DNA of 43,064 nt. It comes from an uncultured Clostridia bacterium (lineage in GTDB: Bacteria; UBA6262; WVXT01). Location of the stretch: positions 1 through 43,064 of the forward strand of contig CAZTSA010000001.1 in assembly GCA_964616885.1 (NCBI GenBank). Direction: 5' to 3'. Below, one piece after another: positions 1-33,710 of this stretch. The stretch's first letter is position 1. Each line of letters starts with the position of its first letter. The notes below the pieces were generated by a model. The model had not been told where the DNA came from. It saw only the letters and a list, made by a program, of their open reading frames with translations, and did not search any database. A program made the position numbers and the translations under genes.

Positions 1-78
1 TCCTCTGCCCTCTGGGGAGAGGGTTAGGCCTGCCCGTGCCGCCTGCTCATTCTGGGCTTAACGGCCAGGGGTGAGGGG
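1..78. repeat. GC-rich composite palindromic repeat (ccctct-gggg-agaggg hairpin, gcctgcccgtgcc unit, ggtgagggg end)
   Basis: It shares the core gcctgcYcattctgggcYttaacggcca with 11490-11535, and the gcccgtgcc/cacgggcagg units with 11540-11600 and 24148-24203. It overlaps the 3' end of nfo. Confidence 0.7.
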
Positions 79-914
79 TATACAAGACTTTCAATTTTCT
101 CCATATTTCTCATATCATCTTCTTCGCTCTTGTGTGGTGTTTCCATAATTCCAGGAAGATGAAGTAGTTTTGGGTGGTTCACAATATTTCTAAATCCTTC
201 GCTGCCTATGTATCCCTCGCCAATATGCCAGTGTCTATCTACCCGGGAACCAAGAGGAGTCTTAGAATCGTTAAGATGAAGGAGTTTCAGTCTATCCAAT
301 CCAATTAGTCTCTCAAATTCTCCTAAGGTCCTTTCCAGACCGTCTCTCTTTGAAAGGTCATAACCCGATTCAAAAGCATGTGCTGTATCCAGGCAGACCC
401 CAATTCTTTCTCTATTTTGTATTCCATCAATAACAGTCTTAATCTGTGAAAATTTATATCCAATCTGCCTGCCCTGTCCAGCCGTATTTTCGATAACCAC
501 AGTTACTTTGTTTCGGACTTTGTGTAGGGAATAGTTTATCGCCTTAATCAGTCTTTCTATTGATTCATTCTCACTTGCATCCCCGCAACTTCCCATATGG
601 GTAATTAGAAATGAGGCACCAAGGATTTCTGCTCTCTCCAGCTCCGAACTCAATACCCCGATTGATCTGGGATAGAAATTCTGATTGGAAGAGGCCAAGT
701 TCGCCAGATAAGGCATATGGAGAAATAAGGGTCTAATGTCCAGTGCCTCCACCCCTTCTCTAAATTTCTTGACTTCCTCCTGCGGCAAGTAAGAAACTTC
801 CCATCCCCTGGGATTATGAGAAAAGAATTGGATGGTCCTGGCTCTTTTCTTCTTTGCCAGTTCAGGCACCTTAGAGAATCCTTCAGCAATCCAGATATGG
901 AATCCAAAACGCAT
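24..914 (-). CDS. nfo: Endonuclease IV (AP endonuclease, Nfo family)
   Basis: I moved the start to MRFGF (ATG at 914). The protein aligns by eye with E. coli Nfo blocks: VVIENTAGQG, IGVCLDTAHAF, HLNDSK, GSRVDRHWHIGEG, IMETP. The last ~15 codons are read out of the GC-rich repeat. Confidence 0.9.
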   Translation of the reverse strand: MRFGFHIWIAEGFSKVPELAKKKRARTIQFFSHNPRGWEVSYLPQEEVKKFREGVEALDIRPLFLHMPYLANLASSNQNFYPRSIGVLSSELERAEILGASFLITHMGSCGDASENESIERLIKAINYSLHKVRNKVTVVIENTAGQGRQIGYKFSQIKTVIDGIQNRERIGVCLDTAHAFESGYDLSKRDGLERTLGEFERLIGLDRLKLLHLNDSKTPLGSRVDRHWHIGEGYIGSEGFRNIVNHPKLLHLPGIMETPHKSEEDDMRNMEKIESLVYPSPLAVKPRMSRRHGQA

Positions 915-918
915 GCTA

Positions 919-1581
919 TCAAGCTCCAGTATCCTCAAACTCTCTCAATCCTTCCAGGAGAATAAATCTTCCAAGGGGCTTGACATGGCAATCGAAACTC
1001 TTGATAAATAGAGTGTTGTTACATAATCCACCACTTAAATAGAAAAAATCCGGCTCATCTATGAATCTGTAGACATTCTCGGCTATCCCTTTAACAAAGC
1101 TTGCCAGAACACTATTTATTTCGCACCCTTCGGCAATCTTATCGAAAATTTTGGCCATTCCTAAAACTCCACAAGTCACGCCCAGGGATTCACACGCTTT
1201 CTTAAGCTCCGATGTCTTCACATTAAAATGGTTTTCCAGAAGTTCAATGGAGAATCCTAATGTTGCCCCGCAAAGAGCGTTCCAATCCATCTCCTGGTAT
1301 TTGCTATTCTTCATTTTCACATACTTGATGTCTCTGCTTCCCACATCTACTACGAGAAAGCTTCCGTTTCCAATTATTCTCCGGCTACCTTTTTCCAGAG
1401 CAACCAATTCGTTAACTACTCTATCTGCTTTCAATCTTGCGTTATGCCCGCAGGCTACATCGAATCTTATGTCACTCTTGAGCACCTCAAGAGTCTTAAT
1501 AACTCTATAGTCATCTTTTTCCGTGTCCAATATTTTAGTGTAACTGGTTCCCACATCGCCTAGAAACATATTCTTCACCAC
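919..1581 (-). CDS. BadF/BadG/BcrA/BcrD-type ATPase (2-hydroxyacyl-CoA dehydratase activase-like), short 220-aa form
   Basis: It has an ASKHA phosphate-1 motif (LGDVGTSYTK) and VVDVGSRDIK. Two Cys positions (NALCGATLG, GVTCGVLG) correspond to the cluster-bridging Cys of HgdC-type activators. The C-terminal motif is LSGGL. Confidence 0.7.
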   Translation of the reverse strand: MVKNMFLGDVGTSYTKILDTEKDDYRVIKTLEVLKSDIRFDVACGHNARLKADRVVNELVALEKGSRRIIGNGSFLVVDVGSRDIKYVKMKNSKYQEMDWNALCGATLGFSIELLENHFNVKTSELKKACESLGVTCGVLGMAKIFDKIAEGCEINSVLASFVKGIAENVYRFIDEPDFFYLSGGLCNNTLFIKSFDCHVKPLGRFILLEGLREFEDTGA

Positions 1582-1612: not shown

Positions 1613-2326
1613 TTATTTATTTAGTAAAAGATAGGCTTCTATCTTACTTTTAACAGAATTATCAAGAACGTCATCAACTTCAACATAAAGCCCATTATGC
1701 TTCTTTGCCAGATATTTCGCCAGGGAGTTCTTGCTGCAGAAGGCCTGCGCGTAGAATACTGTGGGCAGTTCCTCTCCTACCATCATTTCCAATTCCAGGT
1801 CTGCAGGGACTTTTGCTTCAATACACCTCGCCCAGCCAAAAACATGCGTCTCTTTAGGGAATAGATCCAGTATGCTGAAGTCATTGGGAGGAACCCCCCA
1901 GAAACCATACTTTGGCTCTCCATATTTCAACTTTGACTTATCAACATGTTTGACGATACTGTCCACTATCAAATCGAACTTTTTTCTCAACTCGAGGTCG
2001 CTTTCACATATTATCTGAGGATACCTGTGGGTGGAATTATTTTGAGTAGTAATTATAGGCACATTAAGTTCCCGCTTGAGAATTTCGCTAACGAACCTGC
2101 CGTTGTCACACTTGCTATAGCCATTGTCAAAAATGATGAGGTCCAGTTTCAGGGTCAAAGCATTGGCTATAATGCTTTTGATTGTAGCGCAATATATCTT
2201 TGGCAAATAGAGTTCAGCTTTGGTGTTATCGGTGAAATCGAAAAGTGTATCGAGGTCTATAAAATCGTCTCCCCTGTATTTATCCAAGATTTCCTGGGGA
2301 GGAACTCCCGCTATACCTATCTTCAT
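1613..2326 (-). CDS. 2-hydroxyacyl-CoA dehydratase (HgdB/BcrC/BadD D-component)-like protein, short 237-aa form
   Basis: It is adjacent to the activase-like gene and co-directional with it. It has Rossmann-like alternating segments with several conserved-looking Cys. The assignment rests on overall resemblance and gene context only. Confidence 0.5.
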   Translation of the reverse strand: MKIGIAGVPPQEILDKYRGDDFIDLDTLFDFTDNTKAELYLPKIYCATIKSIIANALTLKLDLIIFDNGYSKCDNGRFVSEILKRELNVPIITTQNNSTHRYPQIICESDLELRKKFDLIVDSIVKHVDKSKLKYGEPKYGFWGVPPNDFSILDLFPKETHVFGWARCIEAKVPADLELEMMVGEELPTVFYAQAFCSKNSLAKYLAKKHNGLYVEVDDVLDNSVKSKIEAYLLLNK

Positions 2327-3093: not shown

Positions 3094-3179
3094 CCCCTCA
3101 CCCTAACCTCTGCCCCAAGGGAGAGGAAATATGAGGAAATTGTCCCTCGCCGTAGCCCTCTCCCCGAAAGGGGAGAGGG
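3094..3179. repeat. GC-rich palindromic repeat pair, including the perfect hairpin ccctctcccc-GAAA-ggggagaggg (3156-3179)
   Basis: cccctcaccctaacctctgccccaagggagagg is followed by a second hairpin. It is related to 1-78, 2590-2625 and 11590-11612. Confidence 0.7.
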
Positions 3180-3203: not shown

Positions 3204-4391
3204 TTAAATCTCTTCCCAGAGAAAGAGTTGCTTATCTATTTCCGGCTTCGGTTCTTCCTTCCCGGGATAAAATTTTCCATCCAGAGTGACAAATCGTCTT
3301 GCTCTTCTGGCAACCACACCCAACTTTTTCAGTTGTTCCAGTTCCTTTAGTTTGGCCGTCTTCCTTAAATGGATAATTCTCTTAGCTGATATTCTGCCAA
3401 TTCCAGGAACCCGGAGCAGTTCTTCAAAAGAGGCCTTATTTATCTCTACAGGAAACCTTTCGGTATTACCCAATGCCCAGGTTAACTTGGGGTCTTTATC
3501 TAAATATAGGTTGCCCTTACCGTCAAAAATTAATTCATCTGCAGTGAAATCATACTTCCTTAATAGGAAATCGGCTTGGTAGAGGCGAAACTCTCTTAAG
3601 GGAGGGCAGGGACGAAAGTTTTCCAGAGGAGTATCTTCTACCGGAGTGAAAGCACTGTAGTAGACTCTACGAAGATTATAATCTCTGTAGAGTTTCTGAC
3701 TGAGGGAGAGTATTTCTCTATCATCGTCTTCTGCCGCTCCTACTACCAACTGGGTAGTCACCCCTGCTTTCAAAGGGTGATTGTGGTTGAAATGGGCAAT
3801 CTTTCTCAGCCCTCCCAGTAGCTCTCGATGAAAATTCTTGTCCGGGGATAATATGGAGAGGCAGCTCTGGTTCGGTGCTTCAAGGTTTATGGAGAGCCGA
3901 TTTGCCAAATTTCCTGTGGCTTCAATGAGAGTGCTATCTACGCCAGGAAGAATCTTACAGTGGATATATCCCCTGTAATTGTGTCGGTACCTCAAAATCC
4001 TCAGAGTCTCCAACATCTTTTCTTGACTGGCATTAGGAGAAACTTTTACTGCTGAAGAGAGAAAAAGCCCTTTGACCCATCCCTTTTTGTAGTACTCCAG
4101 AAAAAGAGAAGCGAGTTCTTGAGGCGCAAATTCTACTCGAGGACAACTTCTGTCTTTCCTATTTACACAGTAGAAGCAGTTGTTCTCGCAAAGATTAGTT
4201 TGCAGAACTTTGAACAGGTTTACACATTCACCTCTTTCTCCTGCCGCAGGATAGATGAGACTGGAGCGGGCAATGTGTTTGTTGGGGAAAATAGCCAGGG
4301 GGAAGCCAGTTACATCGAACCCTGCTAGCTCCCCAAGGAGATTTGCTTTGTGATATGAATTACGTGTTGTCATGGAAAATCCACAATCCAA
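3204..4391 (-). CDS. Radical SAM protein of the 'putative DNA modification/repair radical SAM' type, with a C-terminal helix-hairpin-helix
   Basis: It has the CENNCFYC (CX3CX2C) motif and a C-terminal HhH (LLRVPGIGRISAKRI). Length and layout match the TIGR03916-like family. The start could instead be the internal Met at 4373. Confidence 0.8.
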   Translation of the reverse strand: MDCGFSMTTRNSYHKANLLGELAGFDVTGFPLAIFPNKHIARSSLIYPAAGERGECVNLFKVLQTNLCENNCFYCVNRKDRSCPRVEFAPQELASLFLEYYKKGWVKGLFLSSAVKVSPNASQEKMLETLRILRYRHNYRGYIHCKILPGVDSTLIEATGNLANRLSINLEAPNQSCLSILSPDKNFHRELLGGLRKIAHFNHNHPLKAGVTTQLVVGAAEDDDREILSLSQKLYRDYNLRRVYYSAFTPVEDTPLENFRPCPPLREFRLYQADFLLRKYDFTADELIFDGKGNLYLDKDPKLTWALGNTERFPVEINKASFEELLRVPGIGRISAKRIIHLRKTAKLKELEQLKKLGVVARRARRFVTLDGKFYPGKEEPKPEIDKQLFLWEEI

Positions 4392-4394
4392 ATT

Positions 4395-5576
4395 TCAGAT
4401 TAAGGGCATAAAGCCCGGCATTACTTTGAGTTCCTTTGACCAGCGCCGATAGTCTTTTAGACGCCAATCTTTTTTTGAACCCCGTCTGTTCATAGCCAGG
4501 TCTGTAATTCCACATTTTGCTTCAGTGCAGTTGAGGCAGTCTCCCTGACAATCTGTAGCCGGGAAGAACTTCTCCTTTTCTCTCTTGTAAACAGGTATGT
4601 CAATCCCTTCACAATTTCTTGAACTGGTAAACTCCCGATTTAGTCCTCTGGGTTCTCCTTCAACTAATTCATATTCCATGCATAAGGCGAAAGTCATATC
4701 CAATCTTTCGCAAATATTCCTTATGGTGTCGAATACTTTCTTGCGATAATCTATTTTGGCATTCATATAACCGTCGATGTTTTCTATATATAATTTCCTG
4801 TAATCAAATTCCGTTCCCGGGCCAAAACAGGTCTTTATCTTATTAAGTACTTCCTTGTGGATCTTAAGCGGGATGTCGAGGACACTGGCAATTATATGCC
4901 TGGCTCCTGAATCTCTTGCCCTCTTAATTAATTGTTGAAAATCACGCTTCTTGTCCGTAATATAAGGGAATACAGGGTCTATTCTACAAACGGCATAAAT
5001 TGCTTTTTTTGCCATTCTGTCCAAGTTTTTAAAAAGAACACTATTGGAAGCCCCTTGAGGTGCCAAAATTTTCCTTAAGTCTTCGTTTATGGTCAGAAAA
5101 GATACCTGCCCAAATGAATGTCTCTGCTGTCTTATCAGGTCAATTGCCTCTTCAGGAATTTCTGCTTTAGTAATGAATTCTATGGGAATATTTTTTTCTA
5201 CAAAGACCTCAATTATTTTTTCGGAGAGATGGTAAACATTGTTCACAGGCTGAAACGGGTCGGTAACTGGAGAGAGGTAACCACAGCAAGCGACATCAAT
5301 GGAATCGAGCTGGTCTGAAACAATTTTGTCGAAATCCTTGGCAACTATAATTACATTTTCTTTTCGGAAAGTCTGGAAATGGCCAGGAAATGCTAATGAG
5401 TAACAGAAGAAGCATCCTATCCCACAACCATTGTAAGGATTGATGAGCATTCTCTCAGAAGAACATTCTCTCTTTCCAGGCCACCATCCGTGAAGTTCCT
5501 TCCTGGTGGGCACTACCACGTGCTTCTGCGGTTTTTGGATAATTTCGTACTGTTGCCCACCGATTAAGATGTTCAT
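4395..5576 (-). CDS. Radical SAM protein, SplB/'DNA repair photolyase' (COG1533)-like
   Basis: It has a CGIGCFFCY cluster motif near the N-terminus and a second CX3CX2C (CQGDCLNC) near the C-terminus. The last 8 codons (MPGFMPLI) are encoded by a copy of the GGCTTTATGCCC repeat. Confidence 0.7.
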   Translation of the reverse strand: MNILIGGQQYEIIQKPQKHVVVPTRKELHGWWPGKRECSSERMLINPYNGCGIGCFFCYSLAFPGHFQTFRKENVIIVAKDFDKIVSDQLDSIDVACCGYLSPVTDPFQPVNNVYHLSEKIIEVFVEKNIPIEFITKAEIPEEAIDLIRQQRHSFGQVSFLTINEDLRKILAPQGASNSVLFKNLDRMAKKAIYAVCRIDPVFPYITDKKRDFQQLIKRARDSGARHIIASVLDIPLKIHKEVLNKIKTCFGPGTEFDYRKLYIENIDGYMNAKIDYRKKVFDTIRNICERLDMTFALCMEYELVEGEPRGLNREFTSSRNCEGIDIPVYKREKEKFFPATDCQGDCLNCTEAKCGITDLAMNRRGSKKDWRLKDYRRWSKELKVMPGFMPLI

Positions 5577-5745
5577 TGGTCGTTATTTAAGACAAATACC
5601 TGAGGGCATAAAGTCTTATAATAAAGATGTAGCAGAGTTTCGCTCTGCTGCTATATTGGTTCACGAGACAAGCGTGCACACTGATTACTTTCTTTTCTTT
5701 TTTGGCTTCTTTTTCTCTTTCTTAGTTGGTACTTTCCCGGGCATA

Positions 5746-6219
5746 CTAATCATCACCCCTTTCTCTAAGTTTTTCCATCAAGATAGGAAGATTAATAATG
5801 TCCTCTCTATTATACTCCAACAAGACTTGAAGAGCTTGCTCGTTATTTTCTTTCTCGTACTCCTCCCATAGTTCCATAGCAATCCAGCCATTCACATCTG
5901 CCAGCCGCCTTTCGATTCCCAGCATCTGTTCAACCTTCTTCAGCCCGCCAAAAAGATTTCTTTGCCAGCAGTCATACATCAGGTCATAGGTTACGAAATA
6001 ATCATCTAAATTTATTCTCAATTTCTCTCTTATTATAGGGAGATCGAACCTGCTTCCGTTGTAGGTGTAAATGGTGGTTATACCCGAAAGACTTTTCAGT
6101 AAATTCGGCCTGGTAATTTCTCTTCCCACTAACTGAATTATTGTGCCATCTCCATGACAAATTCCCAGGACAGTTATTTCTCCCTCGAAAGAGGTCTCGA
6201 TGTCCAGAAAAGCTTTCAT
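5746..6219 (-). CDS. RNase H-fold 3'-5' exonuclease (YprB/PF13482-like, DEDD)
   Basis: The motifs FLDIETS (DxE), YNGSRFDLPI and EYNREDI are spaced as in DEDDy exonucleases. Confidence 0.65.
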   Translation of the reverse strand: MKAFLDIETSFEGEITVLGICHGDGTIIQLVGREITRPNLLKSLSGITTIYTYNGSRFDLPIIREKLRINLDDYFVTYDLMYDCWQRNLFGGLKKVEQMLGIERRLADVNGWIAMELWEEYEKENNEQALQVLLEYNREDIINLPILMEKLRERGDD

Positions 6220-6230
6220 GATTCAAATCT

Positions 6231-7238
6231 CTAGCGGAGCAAACACTCTTGAGGTATTCTCTTAGTAGCTACTATTTGGGACGCCCTTTTCAGGAAGCCA
6301 TCAAATTTCACGCCTTGTCTGTATCCTCCGCACCAACCTAAGGAACTATCAACTCTTTGAAAGAATTCATTTATCCGTCTAACAAATACTTCTCTAATAT
6401 ACTTGCCCAGAATTGAAGACAGTGCAATGGGAAAGATGAATTTGTCTCCCGACTTGATAAAACAAACCTTCAATTTTTTCCCTTTACAGCAAACTGTAAA
6501 AGCGTCCACTCCTTCCTTTGCATGATAGGATAGAATTTCAAATCTTTCCCCCAAATAACTCAAAATCTTGTGTTTTCCCCACCCATCTATTTTCCCTGAT
6601 AATAAGGAAATTTTTTCTTCGCCATAATTTTTCAGGAATAGGTCTATGAAATCACCTATGGTTTGAATCTCAAGTGAGTACTTATCCAGATTCTTCGCTT
6701 GTGCTCTATTGAGAGTGGAGGGACAGAATATTCTACTTTTCCAAAAAATGAATTCTATTCTCTTTTGACTTAACGATTGCGTCAATTTTTTCGACAGGTC
6801 TCTTACAAGCTCGGTTTCTACTTTCCAGGAAGGGAGATTATAAGGAGTGCCATTACCACAGAGGGAGCTTTCCCAATTAACAGGGCAATCGCTCAGGAAA
6901 AATTGCCTATTTACGATGATTTGGGGAAAAAAATCATTGTCGAAATCTTGTGGCAATCTTCCATTCAGAAGAGAATAGAATGCAAGTGCTGTGGACTCTC
7001 CCAATTTGTAAGTCCTCTGGTTATTGCTTTGGAAAAGTTCTTTACTGTCACAGACAATAAGACTCGACTTATCCCTTCTATTCCTTGAGATTACTCCTCT
7101 GAGTTCATTCCAGAAGAAATCGTTGTTGAAGTCGTAGTCCCTCTCTACCCTGAAAGCAGTGGCAGTCACAACTAAAGGTCCCAGCATTCTCTGATTTCGA
7201 AGACCCAATCCATTCTCATCAATTCCTACGATTATCAT
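6231..7238 (-). CDS. Divergent RNase HII-like protein with a large internal insertion
   Basis: GIDENGLG..LGPLVV resembles RNase HII motif I (GIDEAGRG..GP.V). CDSKELF resembles DSKxL. KSGDKFIFPIALSSILGKYIRE resembles HKAD....VAAASILAKV.RD. About 130 extra residues lie between motifs II and III. Confidence 0.55.
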   Translation of the reverse strand: MIIVGIDENGLGLRNQRMLGPLVVTATAFRVERDYDFNNDFFWNELRGVISRNRRDKSSLIVCDSKELFQSNNQRTYKLGESTALAFYSLLNGRLPQDFDNDFFPQIIVNRQFFLSDCPVNWESSLCGNGTPYNLPSWKVETELVRDLSKKLTQSLSQKRIEFIFWKSRIFCPSTLNRAQAKNLDKYSLEIQTIGDFIDLFLKNYGEEKISLLSGKIDGWGKHKILSYLGERFEILSYHAKEGVDAFTVCCKGKKLKVCFIKSGDKFIFPIALSSILGKYIREVFVRRINEFFQRVDSSLGWCGGYRQGVKFDGFLKRASQIVATKRIPQECLLR

Positions 7239-7253
7239 CTCTTAGCCACAAAT

Positions 7254-7745
7254 TCAATATTTTTCCCAGTGAAGGACTTCCCTCAACTCTTTCTTGGCCG
7301 GCTTTGGCTGCTCTTCGCTATAACCAATAGGAATCAGGGTAATAAGTTTAAAATCCTGTGGCGCTCCAAGCAGCTGGCGGACTCTTTTTGCATATAGCTT
7401 TTTGTCTCCGGCTACCCAGCAAGCCCCCAACCCGTGTGCGTGGGCCGCCAGGAGTATATTTTCAGTTGCTGCACAGCCGTCTTCTAAGTAGTGTTTAGTC
7501 TGGCGAGAAAAAACGACAACGCAAAGAGGAGCGTTTGCAATAAACTTACCACGATCGGTCATTTCTGCAATTCTCTGCTTCATTTCTTTTTTAGTAACCA
7601 CAATAAATTCGACAGGCTGTATATTTACGGCACTGGGAGCAAGTCGACCGCAATCTATGATATCTTCAATTATTTTTTTGGGGACGCGAGCACCTAAGAA
7701 TTTCCTTTTACTCCTCCTGGTTTTCAGCGCTTTAATGGCTTCCAT
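7254..7745 (-). CDS. Nitroreductase family protein (FMN-dependent)
   Basis: It has the RRS.R..F N-terminal motif and APSA.N.QP, and its ~160-aa size is typical of the family. Confidence 0.85.
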   Translation of the reverse strand: MEAIKALKTRRSKRKFLGARVPKKIIEDIIDCGRLAPSAVNIQPVEFIVVTKKEMKQRIAEMTDRGKFIANAPLCVVVFSRQTKHYLEDGCAATENILLAAHAHGLGACWVAGDKKLYAKRVRQLLGAPQDFKLITLIPIGYSEEQPKPAKKELREVLHWEKY

Positions 7746-7792
7746 AGCGGTTCTCCTGTCAGACTATGGATTCCTGAAATTTTCTCGTTTTT

Positions 7793-7821
7793 ATCTTATA
7801 TTTTTTGCGAAAAAAAGTCAA
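7793..7821 (-). promoter_or_regulatory. Candidate sigma70 promoter for the nitroreductase / RNase HII-like operon
   Basis: On the minus strand: TTGACT, a 17-nt spacer, then TAAGAT. It lies ~50 nt upstream of the ATG at 7745. Confidence 0.3.
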
Positions 7822-7946: not shown

Positions 7947-8242
7947 GGCTTGAAGTGAACCTGTAAGCCGAATTCTGTATCCCGATTGGAAATCGGGACG
8001 ATGGTTATTTGTCTGAGCGACCAACCCAAAGAGTAGTAGCGAGACGGGCCGCCTCTCCTCTGCTATTCGGTCTTGCTCCGAGTGGGGTTTAGCCTTTTCA
8101 CTACAGCATTACCTGTACCTGGTTTCTGTGCCACTTTCCGTAGGATCGCTCCCCTTCCGTTTGCACGGAACACTCTGCCCTGTGGAGTTCGGACTTTCCT
8201 CTCCGATAGATATCAGAGCAACCATCCGGTTCACATCAAGCC
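7947..8242 (-). ncRNA. rnpB: RNase P RNA, bacterial type A (compact)
   Basis: The minus strand reads GGAGAGGAAAGTCCGAACTCCACAGGGCAG, CACAGAAACCAGG, AAACCCCACTCGGAGCAAGACCGAATAG and ACAGAATTCGGCTTACAGG, matching the universally conserved regions. P1 is formed by GGCTTGATGTGAACC and GGTTCACTTCAAGCC at the two ends. Confidence 0.9.
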
Positions 8243-8417: not shown

Positions 8418-9026
8418 TCAGGCGGAGCTTGGCTCTGCTATCCTAAAAGTAGCCTGTCCCCTTTTTATTGCGAGATTGGCAAGTTGGTCCGCTGCCTTAT
8501 TCTCATTCCTATCTATGAGGCGATAAGTAACCTTTTCAAAGTTAACTTCTACATTTTTTGCCTGTTGAAATAGTCGCCGTAGGCCCTCATTGTTTATCCG
8601 GAATCTTCCATTCATCTGATTAATCAATAATTCGGAATCACTAAATACAATAACGCTTTCAGCTACTAGCTTCTTGCTTTCTCTTAGTCCCTGAATCAAG
8701 GCTTTGTATTCAGCCACATTATTACTGGCTGTCCCGATGTATTTCTTTACTTCTTTAATTTTTTTCTTCTTCCGGTCATAGATAACTACGCCAATTCCTG
8801 AAGGTCCGGGATTGGGCACTGCAGCTCCATCAACATATACCCTGAGATTTCTATATTTTTCGCCTAACGATGGAACTTCTAACATTGAAGCTGCAACCGA
8901 GATAGCTTTCCATATTTTATTGTCACTGAGTCCAGGCAGTTTCTTTTTCGCTGAGAGAAAAGACCTTTCCTCGACAAGAGTCTTCAATATTCTATAGGTT
9001 TCCTTACTTGGTTCGGACTTCTTCAT
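8418..9026 (-). CDS. rnhA: Ribonuclease HI-family protein with a ~70-aa N-terminal extension
   Basis: Candidate DEDD residues lie in VDGAA, NNVAEYKAL, FSDSEL and NKAADQLAN. The ATG at 9026 overlaps the upstream stop (ATGA). The last codons run into the GTAGCCTGTCCCCTTTT motif. Confidence 0.85.
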   Translation of the reverse strand: MKKSEPSKETYRILKTLVEERSFLSAKKKLPGLSDNKIWKAISVAASMLEVPSLGEKYRNLRVYVDGAAVPNPGPSGIGVVIYDRKKKKIKEVKKYIGTASNNVAEYKALIQGLRESKKLVAESVIVFSDSELLINQMNGRFRINNEGLRRLFQQAKNVEVNFEKVTYRLIDRNENKAADQLANLAIKRGQATFRIAEPSSA

Positions 9027-9796
9027 TTTTCTTCCTTGAGGTATAGTATCCTCAAACAATTTCCACAAGCTACTAAATCCTTCCCGCTCAAAACATCATT
9101 TATAACCTGAGGCGGCAAAACTATGCTGCATCCTCCACAAAATCCACCAACTACTGGAACGACCGCGACCCCATCCTTCTTTTCTCTTATTTTCTGATAT
9201 CGCCGGAAAATTTCTGGTTCGACGCTAGCTATTTTCTGTTTCTCTTCGGATTCAACCTCTTGTAGGTTCTGATTAAGGCGCTCTAATCTGTCTTTCAATT
9301 CCTTTTGCTTTCTAGTGACTTCTTCCTTTTCCTTGGCAAGCTCTTCTTCTTTTCTCTTCTCTTCAGCAAGGAGCGTTTCCTCTTGCTCCATTACTGCAAG
9401 AACTGCATCCTCAATATCACTTTTTGACTTCTTATTTTCCTCGATCTCTTTTAGTAATGCGGTATAAGCCTCGTTCGTCTTCACCGTGAATAGCTCGCTC
9501 TGGTGCTTCTTAAGTTCTTCTTCTTTCACCTTAAGGTCCAGCTCCTTATTTTTTCTATCTATCTGTAATTGGGTAATCCCCTTCTTCAACTGGTTCAGAG
9601 ATTCCTGGCTTTGTTCAAATTCCCTTGCCAATCTGTCGATTTCCTTGGGGATCTGTTCTATTTCACTCCGAATCTGGTCCAGAACTAAGTCAACTTCCTG
9701 TAATTCAATTAACCTTTCTAATTGTTCATTCACGTCTATTCCCAGAAAAAAATCTAGACTATTTATACCAAATTTCTGGGACAAAGTCAACTCCAA
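9023..9796 (-). CDS. COG1579-type coiled-coil protein with a C4 zinc ribbon
   Basis: A long heptad-rich E/K/L region is followed by CGGC...18 aa...CGNC. The start is uncertain (TTG at 9796 or the downstream GTG). Confidence 0.8.
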   Translation of the reverse strand: MELTLSQKFGINSLDFFLGIDVNEQLERLIELQEVDLVLDQIRSEIEQIPKEIDRLAREFEQSQESLNQLKKGITQLQIDRKNKELDLKVKEEELKKHQSELFTVKTNEAYTALLKEIEENKKSKSDIEDAVLAVMEQEETLLAEEKRKEEELAKEKEEVTRKQKELKDRLERLNQNLQEVESEEKQKIASVEPEIFRRYQKIREKKDGVAVVPVVGGFCGGCSIVLPPQVINDVLSGKDLVACGNCLRILYLKEEK

Positions 9797-17115: not shown

Positions 17116-17880
17116 TTATTCTATCTTTTTATCGTATTTTGTTGTTCTCTGCTTAGCCCACTCCCAGGTATAATCGTACAAGTGAAGGCCTTTACTTATC
17201 GCTATGATTTCTCCGTCTTCGATTCCAATCTCTTCTGCCATATACTGCTTTACTAGTTGCAATCCACCCAGGTTTGAGGGGAAACCTCCCCATAAATCCC
17301 AGGACCTGAAATAAGGAATAAAATGGAGTTTCCCATACCTGATTCTAGTGTCTATTAATCTCAGACAGGGAGGATCTTTTAAGCCAACATCAGAAGGCAT
17401 TCCAATCTCCATTATCGCCTGATTCGTGCCATGTCCCTCTGTCCTGTACATTTTTATGACTTCCTCTATCTGGTTAACATTGAGAGGAATTTCTTTCATT
17501 ATCCTTTTTCCTTTAATATTTTCCACTATTCTCACCTTGGGGTCAACCAGTCTCTCACCGTAGGTATAGTCTTCTGTCTCTGTCTTGGCTCCGGTCAAAA
17601 GGTATTGGAGATAACCCTGGATATACTCCATACTCGTTGGGGCTGGAATGCCAGAACCTTCGGGAATAATAGGTATTATCTGATGAGAAGGTTTCTTAAC
17701 CCTGACAGTAACGAAATCGAACTCCAGCCTCTTCTGGCCTTTATAACTACCTCTGGTAACCGTGTAAACTTCCCCCTTCTCCAATATCGCTGAAAGACAC
17801 TGGAACCAGGCATCGTCGAGGTCAAAAGCCTCAATATATACTGGCTTCATACCTTCGTTCTGAGTGGACTGAGTTAACAT
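17116..17880 (-). CDS. thyA: Thymidylate synthase family protein, archaeal-like divergent ThyA
   Basis: It has a PPCL block (catalytic Cys position) and FRSWDLWGGFPSN, matching the ThyA R-S-x-D and G-x-P-x-N motifs. The Asn is retained, which implies a dUMP-type substrate. The start is M1 or the internal MKPVY. Confidence 0.7.
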   Translation of the reverse strand: MLTQSTQNEGMKPVYIEAFDLDDAWFQCLSAILEKGEVYTVTRGSYKGQKRLEFDFVTVRVKKPSHQIIPIIPEGSGIPAPTSMEYIQGYLQYLLTGAKTETEDYTYGERLVDPKVRIVENIKGKRIMKEIPLNVNQIEEVIKMYRTEGHGTNQAIMEIGMPSDVGLKDPPCLRLIDTRIRYGKLHFIPYFRSWDLWGGFPSNLGGLQLVKQYMAEEIGIEDGEIIAISKGLHLYDYTWEWAKQRTTKYDKKIE

Positions 17881-30286: not shown

Positions 30287-33200
30287 TTAGAAGAGGCAGT
30301 AAGGGGTTGGGCAACCCCCGGCATATTCTGAGTCCACACTTACGTATCCAGATGCTTCTTCGCTCACCTCTTCCCGGACGGAACCGAGATAGAGGACCTG
30401 CTGGGGTTTGCTTCCATACCTATACACCGTGACCCCTTTGCATCCGAGCTTATACGCAAGCTTGTAAACTTTTTCTACTTCTTCCACTGTGGACTCGTAC
30501 GGGAGATTGACTGTCTTCGATACAGCGTTGTCTGTATACTTCTGGAAAGCTGCCTGCATTCTAACATGCCATTCTGGGGAGATATCGAAAGCTGTCAAGA
30601 ATATCTTTCTTATGTAGGCCGGAATCTTCTTCATCTGTTGTATAGAACCTTTCTTTGCTATCTCCCCCAGTAATTTCTTATTGTAAAATCCTTTACCTAT
30701 GGCTAATTCTTCAAACAGACTATTGGTCTCCAGAAACTGGGTGCCTTCGAGTATCTTTCGGACATAAGATATAGCAAATAAAGGCTCTATGCCGCTGGAA
30801 CAACCCGCAATAGTACTTATCGTCCCTGTGGGAGCAATTGTGGTTAAAGAGGCGTTTCGCACTCTGATTTTTCTCTTATCCCAAACACTTCCTCTAAAAT
30901 TTGGAAAGACGCCCCTCAATTCCGCTAGCCTCTTCGATTTTTCTCTCGCTTCTCTCGTTACGAATTTCATAATCTTCCCAGCGACGCCGATTCCCTCCCG
31001 GGAATCATAGGGAATACCTAGTTTGATTAACATTTCAGCAAATCCCATGACTCCCAAGCCAATTTTTCTATTACTCTTGGTTATTTTTTCTATTTGAGAG
31101 AGCGGATATTTATTGACATCGATAATGTTGTCCAGAAAATGGACAGCGGTTCTTACCACCTTACTCAGTTTTTGCCAGTTTATCTTATTTTTTTCGACCA
31201 TCTTGGATAGATTTATTGAGCCTAAAACACACGACTCGTATGGCAACAACGGCTGTTCCCCACAGTTCGCAACCACGATACCACTGGCAATATACGACCC
31301 AGACACAGGCTCAGTTAAATTATACACTAGTTCTTTCCCATAACGCTCAATAGACTTTACTTTATCGTAGAACTTGTCAGAATAGAAATTACGTTCTCTC
31401 AATTTATCTATTTTTTGAACAAACTTATCCTGAATAAAACCAATAGAATTTAAGAAATTCAAAATGTTCCGCCTAGAAATTTGCAGTTCGAAAAACATTC
31501 CACTTGTTGAATAATCTCTTTTTTCCCCTTGTATAGTGGTATAGCTAAACTTTCTCTGAGGCGGTCTCTTCCTGTCGTAAATTTTGCTCTTGATTCCAAA
31601 ATTTAGAAGCAAAAGCTGAACTTCCTTTAAGAGCCTTTTTGAATTTGAGCTTAATCTAATATAGACAGTGCCATTTCCCTCGCAAATGTTTATTGTTCCG
31701 TCAGAGCTAAATAAGCCCTGCAAAAATCCAGCAATGGATTCCCTGGGAGCGGTGAACATACTTTCAGGGACTACCTTATCAGTAGCTTTAAACGGTCTAA
31801 CACCAAGGAGCTTGAAGAACTCTACGAAGCCCTTACCATGGTAGGATAACTGATAGGAGTTATTACCTCTATTGACTTCTCGAATATTTTTCCCGTACCA
31901 CTTATTCAAAATAGATTTCAGGTAACCTAAGAGAGGTCGGTCGTTCTTTCCAAAACTAAAGCCAACACGACAATCTTTATCCCCAGTCCTCAACCAACCA
32001 TCGCCTATTAGCCAGCCCAGAACTTGCCCTAATTCCTTGCTCCAAAGAGTAGGCAAGTTCAATGTGGCTCTGTTAGTAAAGTTATTTAAGTAATCGCCCT
32101 CAACAGGTAATTTCTTTTCCTTCCTAAAACTACCTGCCCCAGATTGGATCATTACTTCATGGCTGGAATCTAAATTGGCCAATTTAACCCAACCTTGAGT
32201 AGTTAAGACTTTATGGTTGGCGGTGGCAAGCAGTTCATAACCAGATTTAGTAATAAGCTTGAAAACTTCTTTTTCGCCATTTTCGTATATTTTAACTGAA
32301 TTTCTCAATGCAACACCTTCCGTCCCAAGGACTCTGTTGTCCGTCAAGATGTTAATCCCCCCATTAAGGCTGCCATTCTTGTGCCTTTGGTAAATGCTTT
32401 CAATTTTCTCCAAACCCCTTTCGGTGGCGATTAGACACTCGCCAACAATGCAGGGGTTGGTGCTTTCTATTATTCCAATCTGGGCTGTGGGATTATATTT
32501 ATTTATTCGGTCAATAAACACCAGTCCCGGATCTCCTGTCTTCCAGGCTGTCGCTACTATCAAGTTAAATACATCTCTGGCCCTTAATTTTCTGGTAGGC
32601 TTTCCTGTCCTAGGATTTATTAACTCGTACTCTTTATCATCCTCGACTAATTTCATAAACTTATCGGTTATAGCGACTGAGAGATTGAAATTGGTAAACG
32701 CTCCCTCTTTGGTCTTAGCTGTGACGAACTCCAGGATATCGGGGTGGTCTATTCTCAATATTCCCATATTTGCTCCCCTTCTCCTGCCTCCCTGTTTGAT
32801 TATATCTGTTGCCATATCGAACACCCGCATAAATGAAACAGGGCCGGAAGCAATTCCCTTGGTTGACTTGACCAAGTCTCCTTTTGGTCTCAATCTAGAA
32901 AATGAAAACCCTGTTCCCCCACCCGACTGGTGAATTAAGGCCATATCTTTTACTGCTTCGAAGATCGATTTCATAGAATCTTCCACAGGTAAAACAAAGC
33001 AAGCGGATAATTGACCCATTCTGGTCCCGGCATTAATCAGAGTGGGGCTGTTGGGAATGAACTCCAGATTTGACATAATCCTGTAGAACTCCCTTTCTGA
33101 TTTTTCTGGGTCAAATTTTCTCCCATAAAGGCGGTCGGCGCTGGCCACCTCTCTTGCCACTCTCTGGAACATTTTCTTAGGGGTTTCTATTAGATTGCCT

Positions 33201-33580
33201 AATTCATCTTTCAATAGGTATCTCTTTTCCAGAATTCTTACTGCGTTCACTGGCAATTTTAGATCGTCTTCTACGCCAAAGATTCCTTTGGCTTCGCGGA
33301 CTTCTTTTCGCTTCTGGCGGTATAATATATATGCCTTTGCCACTCTGGCAAGTCCATGTTTAATTAGAACATTCTCTACGATATCCTGTATATCTTCAAC
33401 GCCAGGAATTTTTTGCGCAAATTTCTGCTTGACTATCTTTATCACTTCTCGGGATAATTGTTGGGCCAGGTTTCTGTCCTTTAGCCTTACCGCGAGGATA
33501 CTTTTTTCAATGGCCCTGGTGATTTTATCCTGGTCAAAATCGGCTATTCTGCCATTCCTCTTGCGAATTTTTGTTACCAC
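30287..33580 (-). CDS. nrdJ: Class II (adenosylcobalamin-dependent) ribonucleotide reductase with an N-terminal ATP-cone, interrupted by an intein
   Basis: It has an ATP-cone (KRNGRIADFDQDKI). The extein junction STNP|CGEQPL reconstitutes the class II TNPCGE motif, and there is a C-terminal Cys pair. The proposed start is the GTG at 33580 with the SD GGGGAAG; the in-frame ORF continues upstream to 33676. Confidence 0.93.
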   Translation of the reverse strand: MVTKIRKRNGRIADFDQDKITRAIEKSILAVRLKDRNLAQQLSREVIKIVKQKFAQKIPGVEDIQDIVENVLIKHGLARVAKAYILYRQKRKEVREAKGIFGVEDDLKLPVNAVRILEKRYLLKDELGNLIETPKKMFQRVAREVASADRLYGRKFDPEKSEREFYRIMSNLEFIPNSPTLINAGTRMGQLSACFVLPVEDSMKSIFEAVKDMALIHQSGGGTGFSFSRLRPKGDLVKSTKGIASGPVSFMRVFDMATDIIKQGGRRRGANMGILRIDHPDILEFVTAKTKEGAFTNFNLSVAITDKFMKLVEDDKEYELINPRTGKPTRKLRARDVFNLIVATAWKTGDPGLVFIDRINKYNPTAQIGIIESTNPCIVGECLIATERGLEKIESIYQRHKNGSLNGGINILTDNRVLGTEGVALRNSVKIYENGEKEVFKLITKSGYELLATANHKVLTTQGWVKLANLDSSHEVMIQSGAGSFRKEKKLPVEGDYLNNFTNRATLNLPTLWSKELGQVLGWLIGDGWLRTGDKDCRVGFSFGKNDRPLLGYLKSILNKWYGKNIREVNRGNNSYQLSYHGKGFVEFFKLLGVRPFKATDKVVPESMFTAPRESIAGFLQGLFSSDGTINICEGNGTVYIRLSSNSKRLLKEVQLLLLNFGIKSKIYDRKRPPQRKFSYTTIQGEKRDYSTSGMFFELQISRRNILNFLNSIGFIQDKFVQKIDKLRERNFYSDKFYDKVKSIERYGKELVYNLTEPVSGSYIASGIVVANCGEQPLLPYESCVLGSINLSKMVEKNKINWQKLSKVVRTAVHFLDNIIDVNKYPLSQIEKITKSNRKIGLGVMGFAEMLIKLGIPYDSREGIGVAGKIMKFVTREAREKSKRLAELRGVFPNFRGSVWDKRKIRVRNASLTTIAPTGTISTIAGCSSGIEPLFAISYVRKILEGTQFLETNSLFEELAIGKGFYNKKLLGEIAKKGSIQQMKKIPAYIRKIFLTAFDISPEWHVRMQAAFQKYTDNAVSKTVNLPYESTVEEVEKVYKLAYKLGCKGVTVYRYGSKPQQVLYLGSVREEVSEEASGYVSVDSEYAGGCPTPYCLF
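31265..32452 (-). mobile_element. Intein (396 aa) with a LAGLIDADG homing endonuclease domain
   Basis: It starts with Cys (CIVGECLIA), has block B ATANHKVLT and two LAGLIDADG motifs (LGWLIGDGWL, GFLQGLFSSDGT), and ends in GIVVAN followed by the +1 Cys of CGEQ. Confidence 0.9.
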
Positions 33581-33710
33581 ATTTCTTCCCCTATCGGTGG
33601 AGCAAGGATTTGAGCGACCATAAAGGTTGTCCCCACCCGAATTGCTTCCTAGGAAAAGTTGGTTTGCGAGAAGCACTTAATTTCTTGCGTTGCCAAAATC
33701 TTTACGAGCG

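Follow-up and report, generated by a model that had tools for sequence, protein, structure and literature searches.

A probable lineage-specific cluster of nucleic-acid maintenance genes in an uncultured Clostridia bacterium, with variants of radical SAM enzymes and of RNase HII

Do five co-directional genes in the genome of an uncultured Clostridia bacterium form one undescribed system for processing DNA or RNA? In order of transcription, they encode a nitroreductase-family flavoprotein, a 335-amino-acid (aa) protein resembling RNase HII, a DnaQ-like 3′-5′ exonuclease, a 393-aa radical S-adenosylmethionine (SAM) enzyme of SplB-like type, and a second radical SAM protein that ends in a helix-hairpin-helix (HhH) domain. 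The genes occupy positions 3,204 to 7,821 of a stretch of 43,064 nucleotides (nt; GenBank assembly GCA_964616885.1, contig CAZTSA010000001.1), which was analyzed in full and is hereafter called the window. A first-pass annotation, made from the sequence without database searches, had proposed the block as a single candidate operon for lesion repair, DNA modification or defence. Pfam, NCBIfam and PHROG searches recovered all five genes and bore out the families assigned to them. With moderate confidence, we instead regard the block as a lineage-specific, core-chromosome cluster of separate nucleic-acid maintenance genes that are probably co-transcribed, and not as a dedicated five-component system, because the full block was confined to relatives, the HhH gene was dispensable among them, and homologues of the RNase HII-like protein were solitary elsewhere. 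The three uncharacterised families that it contains, now better delimited, are variants of known enzyme classes and do not amount to a new kind of system.

Conservation of the block within and beyond its lineage

All block proteins were searched by tblastn against 80 genome loci centred on the 393-aa gene, and the 80 metagenomic loci closest to the HhH protein were examined as a second set. Roughly 72 of the former and 70 of the latter lay outside the lineage of the window, giving about 140 outside loci. The full five-gene block was present only in close relatives with 59–96% protein identity (for example, L009). In relatives recovered with the RNase HII-like protein at 59–93% identity (L005, L006, and L009), synteny extended from DUF4416 through endonuclease IV and beyond, over at least 12–15 kb, and conservation of the block among them is uninformative because it is embedded in this longer conserved segment. 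Moreover, three relatives (L005, L006, and L014) cleanly lacked the HhH gene while all else was kept; their lone radical SAM gene was the orthologue of the 393-aa gene (82% identity), and the gene for a small MazG-type nucleotide pyrophosphohydrolase followed 20 nt past it.

Beyond the lineage, neither the nitroreductase nor the RNase HII-like gene nor the exonuclease gene was found near either radical SAM gene in any of the approximately 140 loci. The nitroreductase adjoined the block only in the window's own lineage, and the same restriction applied to the exonuclease beside the radical SAM genes. Recurrence across lineages was limited to the two radical SAM genes, in some loci with MazG. 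Specifically, the HhH gene was located directly 3′ of the 393-aa gene in five outside loci. In the three of Latescibacterota type (L008, L034, and L037) the pair was followed by MazG, 60–62% identical to the window copy, and in L008 and L037 a 257-aa open reading frame (ORF), identified as TatD in L008, separated MazG from the HhH gene. In the two Aerophobetes loci (L032 and L056) the paired genes were 1 nt apart. The first-pass annotation had itself proposed a gene-neighbourhood search for recurrence of the four- to five-gene block and had made co-conservation outside the lineage decisive for its claim; no such recurrence was found, and the claim of one five-gene system largely fails on that count.

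The two radical SAM families and their neighbours

The 393-aa protein scored far below the cut-offs of the NCBIfam models nearest to it (PA0069, 84.4 bits against 360; Rv2578c, 51.8 against 430), and the spore photoproduct lyase (SPL) model was absent from the same scan at E ≤ 0.01. It did match the PHROG family phrog_9252, 'DNA repair photolyase' (1.5e-45). Its radical SAM motif CX3CX2C comprises C51, C55, and C58, while five C-terminal cysteines (C322, C343, C347, C350, and C355) were invariant in the family; the CX3CX2CX4C cluster among these hints at an additional site for a metal or an Fe-S cluster. We confirmed 162 loci of this family, with 51–84% identity overall and 51–71% across more than ten phyla; the groups represented include Aerophobetes, Elusimicrobia/Endomicrobia, Latescibacterota, Omnitrophota, Zixibacteria, Gemmatimonadota, Caldisericota, and one archaeal metagenome-assembled genome (MAG). 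No sequence-level match was found in the PDB. The AlphaFold2 model was poor (mean predicted local distance difference test score, pLDDT, 54.5), with residues 113–300 alone modelled confidently, and its best Foldseek matches, the SPL structures 4fhc and 4fhg (E = 3.6e-6 over about 205 columns), are only indicative for that reason.

The family shares with the SplB-like group (COG1533, with PA0069 and Rv2578c) the radical SAM core and its CX3CX2C motif, and is further linked to it by its best NCBIfam matches, the photolyase match, and DNA-repair neighbourhoods, and tentatively by the best PDB fold match. It differs in its low scores against the family models, in the additional C-terminal cysteine cluster, and in its occurrence in non-sporulating, mostly uncultured anaerobic phyla. 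A literature search on PA0069 and Rv2578c found nothing useful. Another known arrangement, the radical SAM 'mobile pair' A/B (TIGR04471/TIGR04470), likewise consists of two adjoining radical SAM genes, and the 393-aa protein weakly resembled protein B, yet its 49.5 bits fell far short of the 410 required; no match to a protein A model was recorded for the HhH protein, and the window pair is situated in the core chromosome rather than in a mobile element.

Next to the 393-aa gene we surveyed 135 immediate neighbours, by clustering and Pfam, in the approximately 72 loci outside the lineage. RmuC was the most frequent of the families tallied (10), followed by endonuclease V (7, or 11 by clustering), RimO/MiaB-like proteins (6), UvrA and NUDIX (5 each), and MPG (3, or 7 within about 1 kb) and Maf (3). 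The HhH radical SAM protein accounted for 5 neighbours by tblastn, among 16 with Radical_SAM Pfam matches. In a control of 148 genes located 4–5 positions away in the same loci, none of these families was among the 25 commonest.

The HhH protein passed the TIGR03916 cut-off marginally (352.2 against 343.5 bits), and its relatives straddled it, with 348.9 bits in L008 and 331.6 in L007 (clade range 331.6–352.2). Its radical SAM motif reads C-ENN-C-FY-C, and the C-terminal domain was recognized by PF12836 (HHH_3; 2.2e-9) and PF00633 (3.8e-6). In the PDB, sequence matches to this family were limited to the HhH segment and a weak similarity to HydE. Members of TIGR03916 are usually encoded beside a TIGR03915/DUF4130 partner, and the first-pass annotation was right that this partner is missing here: Pfam, run on all sizeable ORFs of the 43-kb window, returned no DUF4130 (PF13566) or uracil-DNA glycosylase (UDG) domain. 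In other loci we searched for DUF4130 with a home-made hidden Markov model applied to all neighbour and window ORFs, followed by Pfam confirmation. It was adjacent in 5 of the 80 closest HhH metagenomic loci, all at 45% identity or less; no adjacent copy accompanied the window gene or the 75 relatives sampled nearest to it. Among 115 immediate neighbours of HhH genes, Pfam recorded DUF4130 three times and no dominant partner.

The window-type clade has the CX3CX2C motif and C-terminal HhH domain of TIGR03916 but not its DUF4130 neighbour; its neighbours were variable, and included the SplB-like radical SAM gene in three lineages. The canonical TIGR03916/DUF4130 pair is itself still uncharacterised, and no paper mentioning TIGR03916 was found in our literature search. 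A 2026 preprint predicted a complex of a radical SAM protein with DUF4130 that acts on nucleic acid and confirmed adjacency in one example pair, and earlier comparative work had connected DUF4130 with SplB-like enzymes and with UDGs. A TIGR03916-type group lacking adjacent DUF4130 bears on what the pair does.

We also noted a 241-aa protein encoded in an Aerophobetes locus (L007, 7185-7910, plus strand), its gene overlapping the 3′ end of the one for the HhH protein. It had no Pfam or NCBIfam match. A C-terminal CX4CX2CX5C motif, which resembles the Fe-S loop of EndoIII, together with a GIGxxT-like stretch makes it a possible EndoIII-like protein. A 52% identical copy was present in a Subteraquimicrobium MAG (L050, 7794-8519), 1.5 kb upstream of the 393-aa gene.

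A cysteine-rich family with the RNase HII fold

The 335-aa protein fell just below the Pfam gathering score for RNase HII (Table 1) and had no NCBIfam match, while its profile matched archaeal RNase HII (1eke) at 1.6e-9. Structure prediction and a Foldseek comparison, both suggested in the first-pass annotation, were informative here. The AlphaFold2 model (pLDDT 90.7; predicted template-modelling score 0.92) has a type 2 RNase H fold, and its top five PDB matches were RNase H3, HII, or H2A, four of them with E ≤ 0.001. A word-indexed search placed 69 clusters in the family and a full profile search 3722 representatives; of these, 856 representative clusters matched the profile at E ≤ 1e-30 over their full length of about 300 aa, and on this basis the family, which is unnamed, is large.

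Features shared with type 2 RNase H (HII, HIII, and H2A) were the fold, the N-terminal GIDE, the DSK motif, the SS..GK..R helix, and the tyrosine motif SGY. The protein is about 100 aa longer through insertions, and its family carries G(L/F/Y)G in place of GRG. Across 145 representatives, the conserved positions were D7-E8-N9-G10, D64-S65-K66, E81, D/E265, the SS..GK..R helix, and G305-Y306. Unlike in type 2 RNase H, the third catalytic Asp was mostly replaced, being Gly in 92% of these representatives, and the family has in addition an invariant E81 and four cysteines (C118, C127, C172, and C332) conserved at 96–97%. The window protein does have an Asp (D218) at the third catalytic position, and its lineage is unusual in this respect. 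Of the four catalytic carboxylates (DEDD), D7, E8, and D265 are thus accompanied by a variable third Asp, for which E81 might substitute, and the four cysteines suggest a metal or Fe-S site and, combined with the change from Asp to Gly, altered catalysis. We class the 335-aa protein as a variant type 2 RNase H that possibly bears a metal cluster and is genomically solitary. A literature search for a cysteine-rich RNase HII-like family found nothing. A large RNase HII-fold family with four cysteines and the third catalytic Asp missing is now better delimited.

Distant homologues (23–37% identity) were found in five contexts, marked by HIT/NadE/GidA, an FtsJ-type methyltransferase, URO-D, MG2/GyrA, and DksA, respectively. 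None of the five held another member of the block, and all are unrelated housekeeping neighbourhoods. The first-pass annotation had named two findings that together would undo its proposal, unrelated housekeeping orthologs of the other genes and a canonical DUF4130-type partner encoded elsewhere; the contexts of the RNase HII-like homologues agree with the former, whereas no canonical partner was present elsewhere in the window.

Transcription, chromosomal setting, and competing explanations

The coordinates of the block and of other features in the window are given in Table 1. The flanking MazG, endonuclease IV, and RNase HI genes reported in the first-pass annotation were all found, and the RNase P RNA gene (rnpB), directly upstream of the block, proved to occupy the apparently empty interval that separates the block from the RNase HI gene.

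Table 1. Positions of the block genes, intergenic elements, and other features in the window
Feature	Position	Strand	Remarks
RNase HI	8418-9068		flank of block
RNase P RNA (rnpB), bacterial class A	7948-8237	-	166.7 bits
Promoter-like site TTGACT-17 nt-TAAGAT	7793-7821	-	5′ of nitroreductase gene; 9/12 consensus positions
Nitroreductase-family flavoprotein, 163 aa	7254-7745	-	PF00881, 93 bits
RNase HII-fold protein, 335 aa	6231-7238	-	PF01351, 24.2 bits (gathering score 25.8)
DnaQ-like 3′-5′ exonuclease, 157 aa	5746-6219	-	PF13482, 116.1 bits (gathering score 22)
Lysine-rich mini-ORF, 19 codons, MPGKVPTKKEKKKPKKKRK	5685-5744	-	within the 169-nt gap
Terminator-like hairpin	5631-5649	-	7-bp stem, then T-rich tail; 3′ of mini-ORF, before 393-aa gene
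SplB-like radical SAM enzyme, 393 aa	4395-5576	-	radical SAM domain; NCBIfam and PHROG matches
HhH radical SAM protein	3204-4373 (mechanical ORF to 4391, 395 aa)	-	TIGR03916; HhH domains
Perfect 10-bp G+C-rich hairpin CCCTCTCCCC-GAAA-GGGGAGAGGG	3156-3179	.	in the HhH–MazG intergenic interval
Small MazG-type nucleotide pyrophosphohydrolase, 101 aa	2771-3076	-	PF03819, 42 bits
237-aa protein	1613-2326	-	faint HgdD-like match
Acyl-CoA-dehydratase-activase-like ATPase	919-1581	-	TIGR00241, 52.9 bits
Endonuclease IV	24-938		flank of block
254-aa protein	17116-17880	-	PF00303 (thymidylate synthase), 36.8 bits, C-terminal half
Ribonucleotide reductase large subunit	30287-33676	-	ATP-cone and barrel; split by intein

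Gaps of 15, 11, 169, and 3 nt separate the five genes, 5′ to 3′, when the ORFs are delimited mechanically, as the annotation had listed them. The last of these values probably needs correction: the HhH protein has homologues of 389 aa, its start is for that reason probably the ATG at 4373, and the gap upstream of it is therefore 21 nt rather than 3. The promoter that the annotation placed ahead of the block matched only 9 of 12 consensus positions, and the 14 such sites in the window did not exceed chance (9.1 ± 3.1 in shuffled sequence). Its motif ATATTGACTTTTTTT..TATAAGATAAA was nevertheless preserved in 7 of 8 relatives, as an island within spacer that had otherwise diverged, and on account of that conservation the promoter is probably real.

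The 169-nt gap does contain the mini-ORF and hairpin that had been described there. The mini-ORF begins 2 nt past the exonuclease stop codon, its peptide was kept in all 11 relatives examined, and most substitutions (305) affected the third base of a codon, with 69 and 54 at the first and second; it likely encodes a genuine small basic protein. The terminator-like hairpin that follows was partly kept in L009, L090, and L012, and the spacer that leads from the mini-ORF to the 393-aa gene ranged from 0 to about 340 nt among relatives. In L090, L091, and L011 this spacer had grown to 300–340 nt, with TTTTTGA tandem repeats and copies of the palindrome GGGCTTTATGCCC, which may be a small repeated element. 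As to the hairpin between the HhH gene and MazG, a T-tail was present on the plus strand only, where no gene terminates, and because the minus strand has no T-tract, it is not a canonical terminator for the block genes. From the arrangement of these elements, co-transcription of the whole series is plausible; even if true, it would be evidence of co-regulation and not of a shared pathway.

Tight spacing and shared direction were general features of the window and do not distinguish the block. Every sizeable gene of the 43 kb was on the minus strand, 12 of 37 junctions were 25 nt or shorter, and the median was 62 nt. The window also encodes RpoD, DnaG, ribonucleotide reductase with a LAGLIDADG intein, MPG, PGI, PtsI, tRNAs, and rnpB, and its G+C content was uniform. 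The setting of the block is core chromosome.

It is improbable that the five genes constitute one dedicated undescribed pathway, in which the radical SAM enzymes would alter a lesion, with electrons from the nitroreductase, and the two RNase H-fold nucleases would then remove it. The compact spacing behind a conserved promoter argues for such a pathway, as do the nucleic-acid or redox functions of all members and the lack of a match to any named repair or defence system, on which the first-pass annotation was correct. It is largely refuted by the absence of co-conservation beyond one lineage, and further opposed by the loss of the HhH member within that lineage, by the unrelated contexts of RNase HII-like homologues, by the ordinary character of the spacing, and by the terminator-like hairpin and variable 0–340-nt spacer that divide the block. 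Neither a role for the nitroreductase as electron source nor a defence or modification role found support. Far less probable still is an anti-phage defence or DNA-modification island, as the annotation had also suggested. Some defence systems do include nucleases and radical SAM enzymes, but PADLOC-DB 2.0 returned 0 matches for 8 proteins at E ≤ 0.01, on which the candidate defence module was rejected, and Pfam found no integrase, methyltransferase or restriction partner in the window; the uniform G+C content, stable synteny, and core-chromosomal position also run counter to an island. A phage origin was rejected as well, since the alignment of the 393-aa family found no relatives in IMG/VR viral contigs, a result that also counts against a defence island.

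An RNA-processing neighbourhood, in which the radical SAM enzymes would modify or repair tRNA or rRNA and not DNA, is unlikely. In its favour, the block is directly downstream of rnpB; a RimO/MiaB-like gene was 5′ of the 393-aa gene in 6–8 Aerophobetes loci and a tRNA U5-methyltransferase was its neighbour in 3; MnmA was near the HhH gene in L007 and MetRS adjoined it in 4 loci; and the 2026 preprint does not decide between DNA and RNA for the DUF4130 pair. The RimO/MiaB-like and methyltransferase neighbours count at the same time against the cluster explanation we prefer. Against an RNA role, the strongest recurrent neighbours were DNA-specific (RmuC, UvrA, MPG, UvrD-PDDEXK, DinG/YoaA, and DinB), the closest solved fold of the 393-aa protein is a DNA lyase, and its family belongs to the SplB-like group. 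Four further points weigh against our explanation. The neighbour counts are not independent, being inflated by clade-level synteny, with UvrA and RmuC drawn entirely from Elusimicrobia/Endomicrobia. The radical SAM pair is uncommon, with 5 of approximately 72 outside loci anchored on the 393-aa gene and none of approximately 70 outside loci anchored on the HhH gene, where the 393-aa gene was absent at 41–63% HhH identity. Within the lineage, the segment from the nitroreductase gene to the mini-ORF is strictly kept, with very little space between its genes. Additionally, in L005 and L013 the spacer is absent and the stop codon of the mini-ORF lies right against the start of the 393-aa gene. These arrangements make co-transcription plausible and co-regulation possible, and the missing spacer also speaks for a five-gene pathway. 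Despite the clade-level inflation, the enrichment of DNA-repair genes beside the 393-aa family is real, with about 5–6 independent associations against none in the control, and this enrichment supports a general DNA-repair role for the family. Further effort on a five-gene system can be spared, as the data do not bear one out.

For the preferred explanation, a cluster of separate maintenance genes, the conserved promoter at 7821-7793 would most likely drive the nitroreductase, RNase HII-fold, and exonuclease genes and the 19-aa lysine-rich peptide, and the same transcript would run past the variable hairpin spacer into the two radical SAM genes and MazG. The 393-aa enzyme would use SAM with two clusters, one [4Fe-4S] and another bound by cysteines, and by analogy with SPL its radical chemistry is probably directed at damaged DNA, for direct reversal or for processing of the lesion. 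The HhH enzyme would grip nucleic acid through its HhH domain and carry out a second radical step, MazG would clear non-canonical nucleotides from the pool, and the RNase HII-fold protein and exonuclease would work independently as general housekeeping nucleases. Fold, family, and neighbourhood together suggest a sub-module of the 393-aa enzyme, HhH enzyme, and MazG that would process a DNA lesion under anoxia. A more specific form of this proposal, which we offer tentatively and consider doubtful, is that where DUF4130 is absent the 393-aa enzyme partners the HhH enzyme and, with MazG, makes up an undescribed two-radical-SAM pathway for the anoxic repair of a DNA base lesion; if true, it would also hint at the function of the widespread TIGR03916/DUF4130 pair. 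Highly conserved in many anaerobic candidate phyla and repeatedly located beside endonuclease V, MPG, UvrA, and RmuC, the SplB-like family is a candidate for oxygen-independent repair outside spore formers.

Finally, we noted several features of individual genes in the window. In the exonuclease, residues 3-151 covered positions 1-164 of the 165-position PF13482 model, and the motifs DIET, NGSRFD, and YNREDI were visible. Downstream of MazG, the activase-like ATPase and the 237-aa protein were among the best-conserved proteins of the region (78–96% identity in the lineage), and in other phyla the two did not accompany the paired radical SAM genes. The intein that splits the ribonucleotide reductase large subunit contains a LAGLIDADG endonuclease domain. 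The 254-aa protein, with its weak partial match to thymidylate synthase, may be a divergent ThyA-like enzyme.

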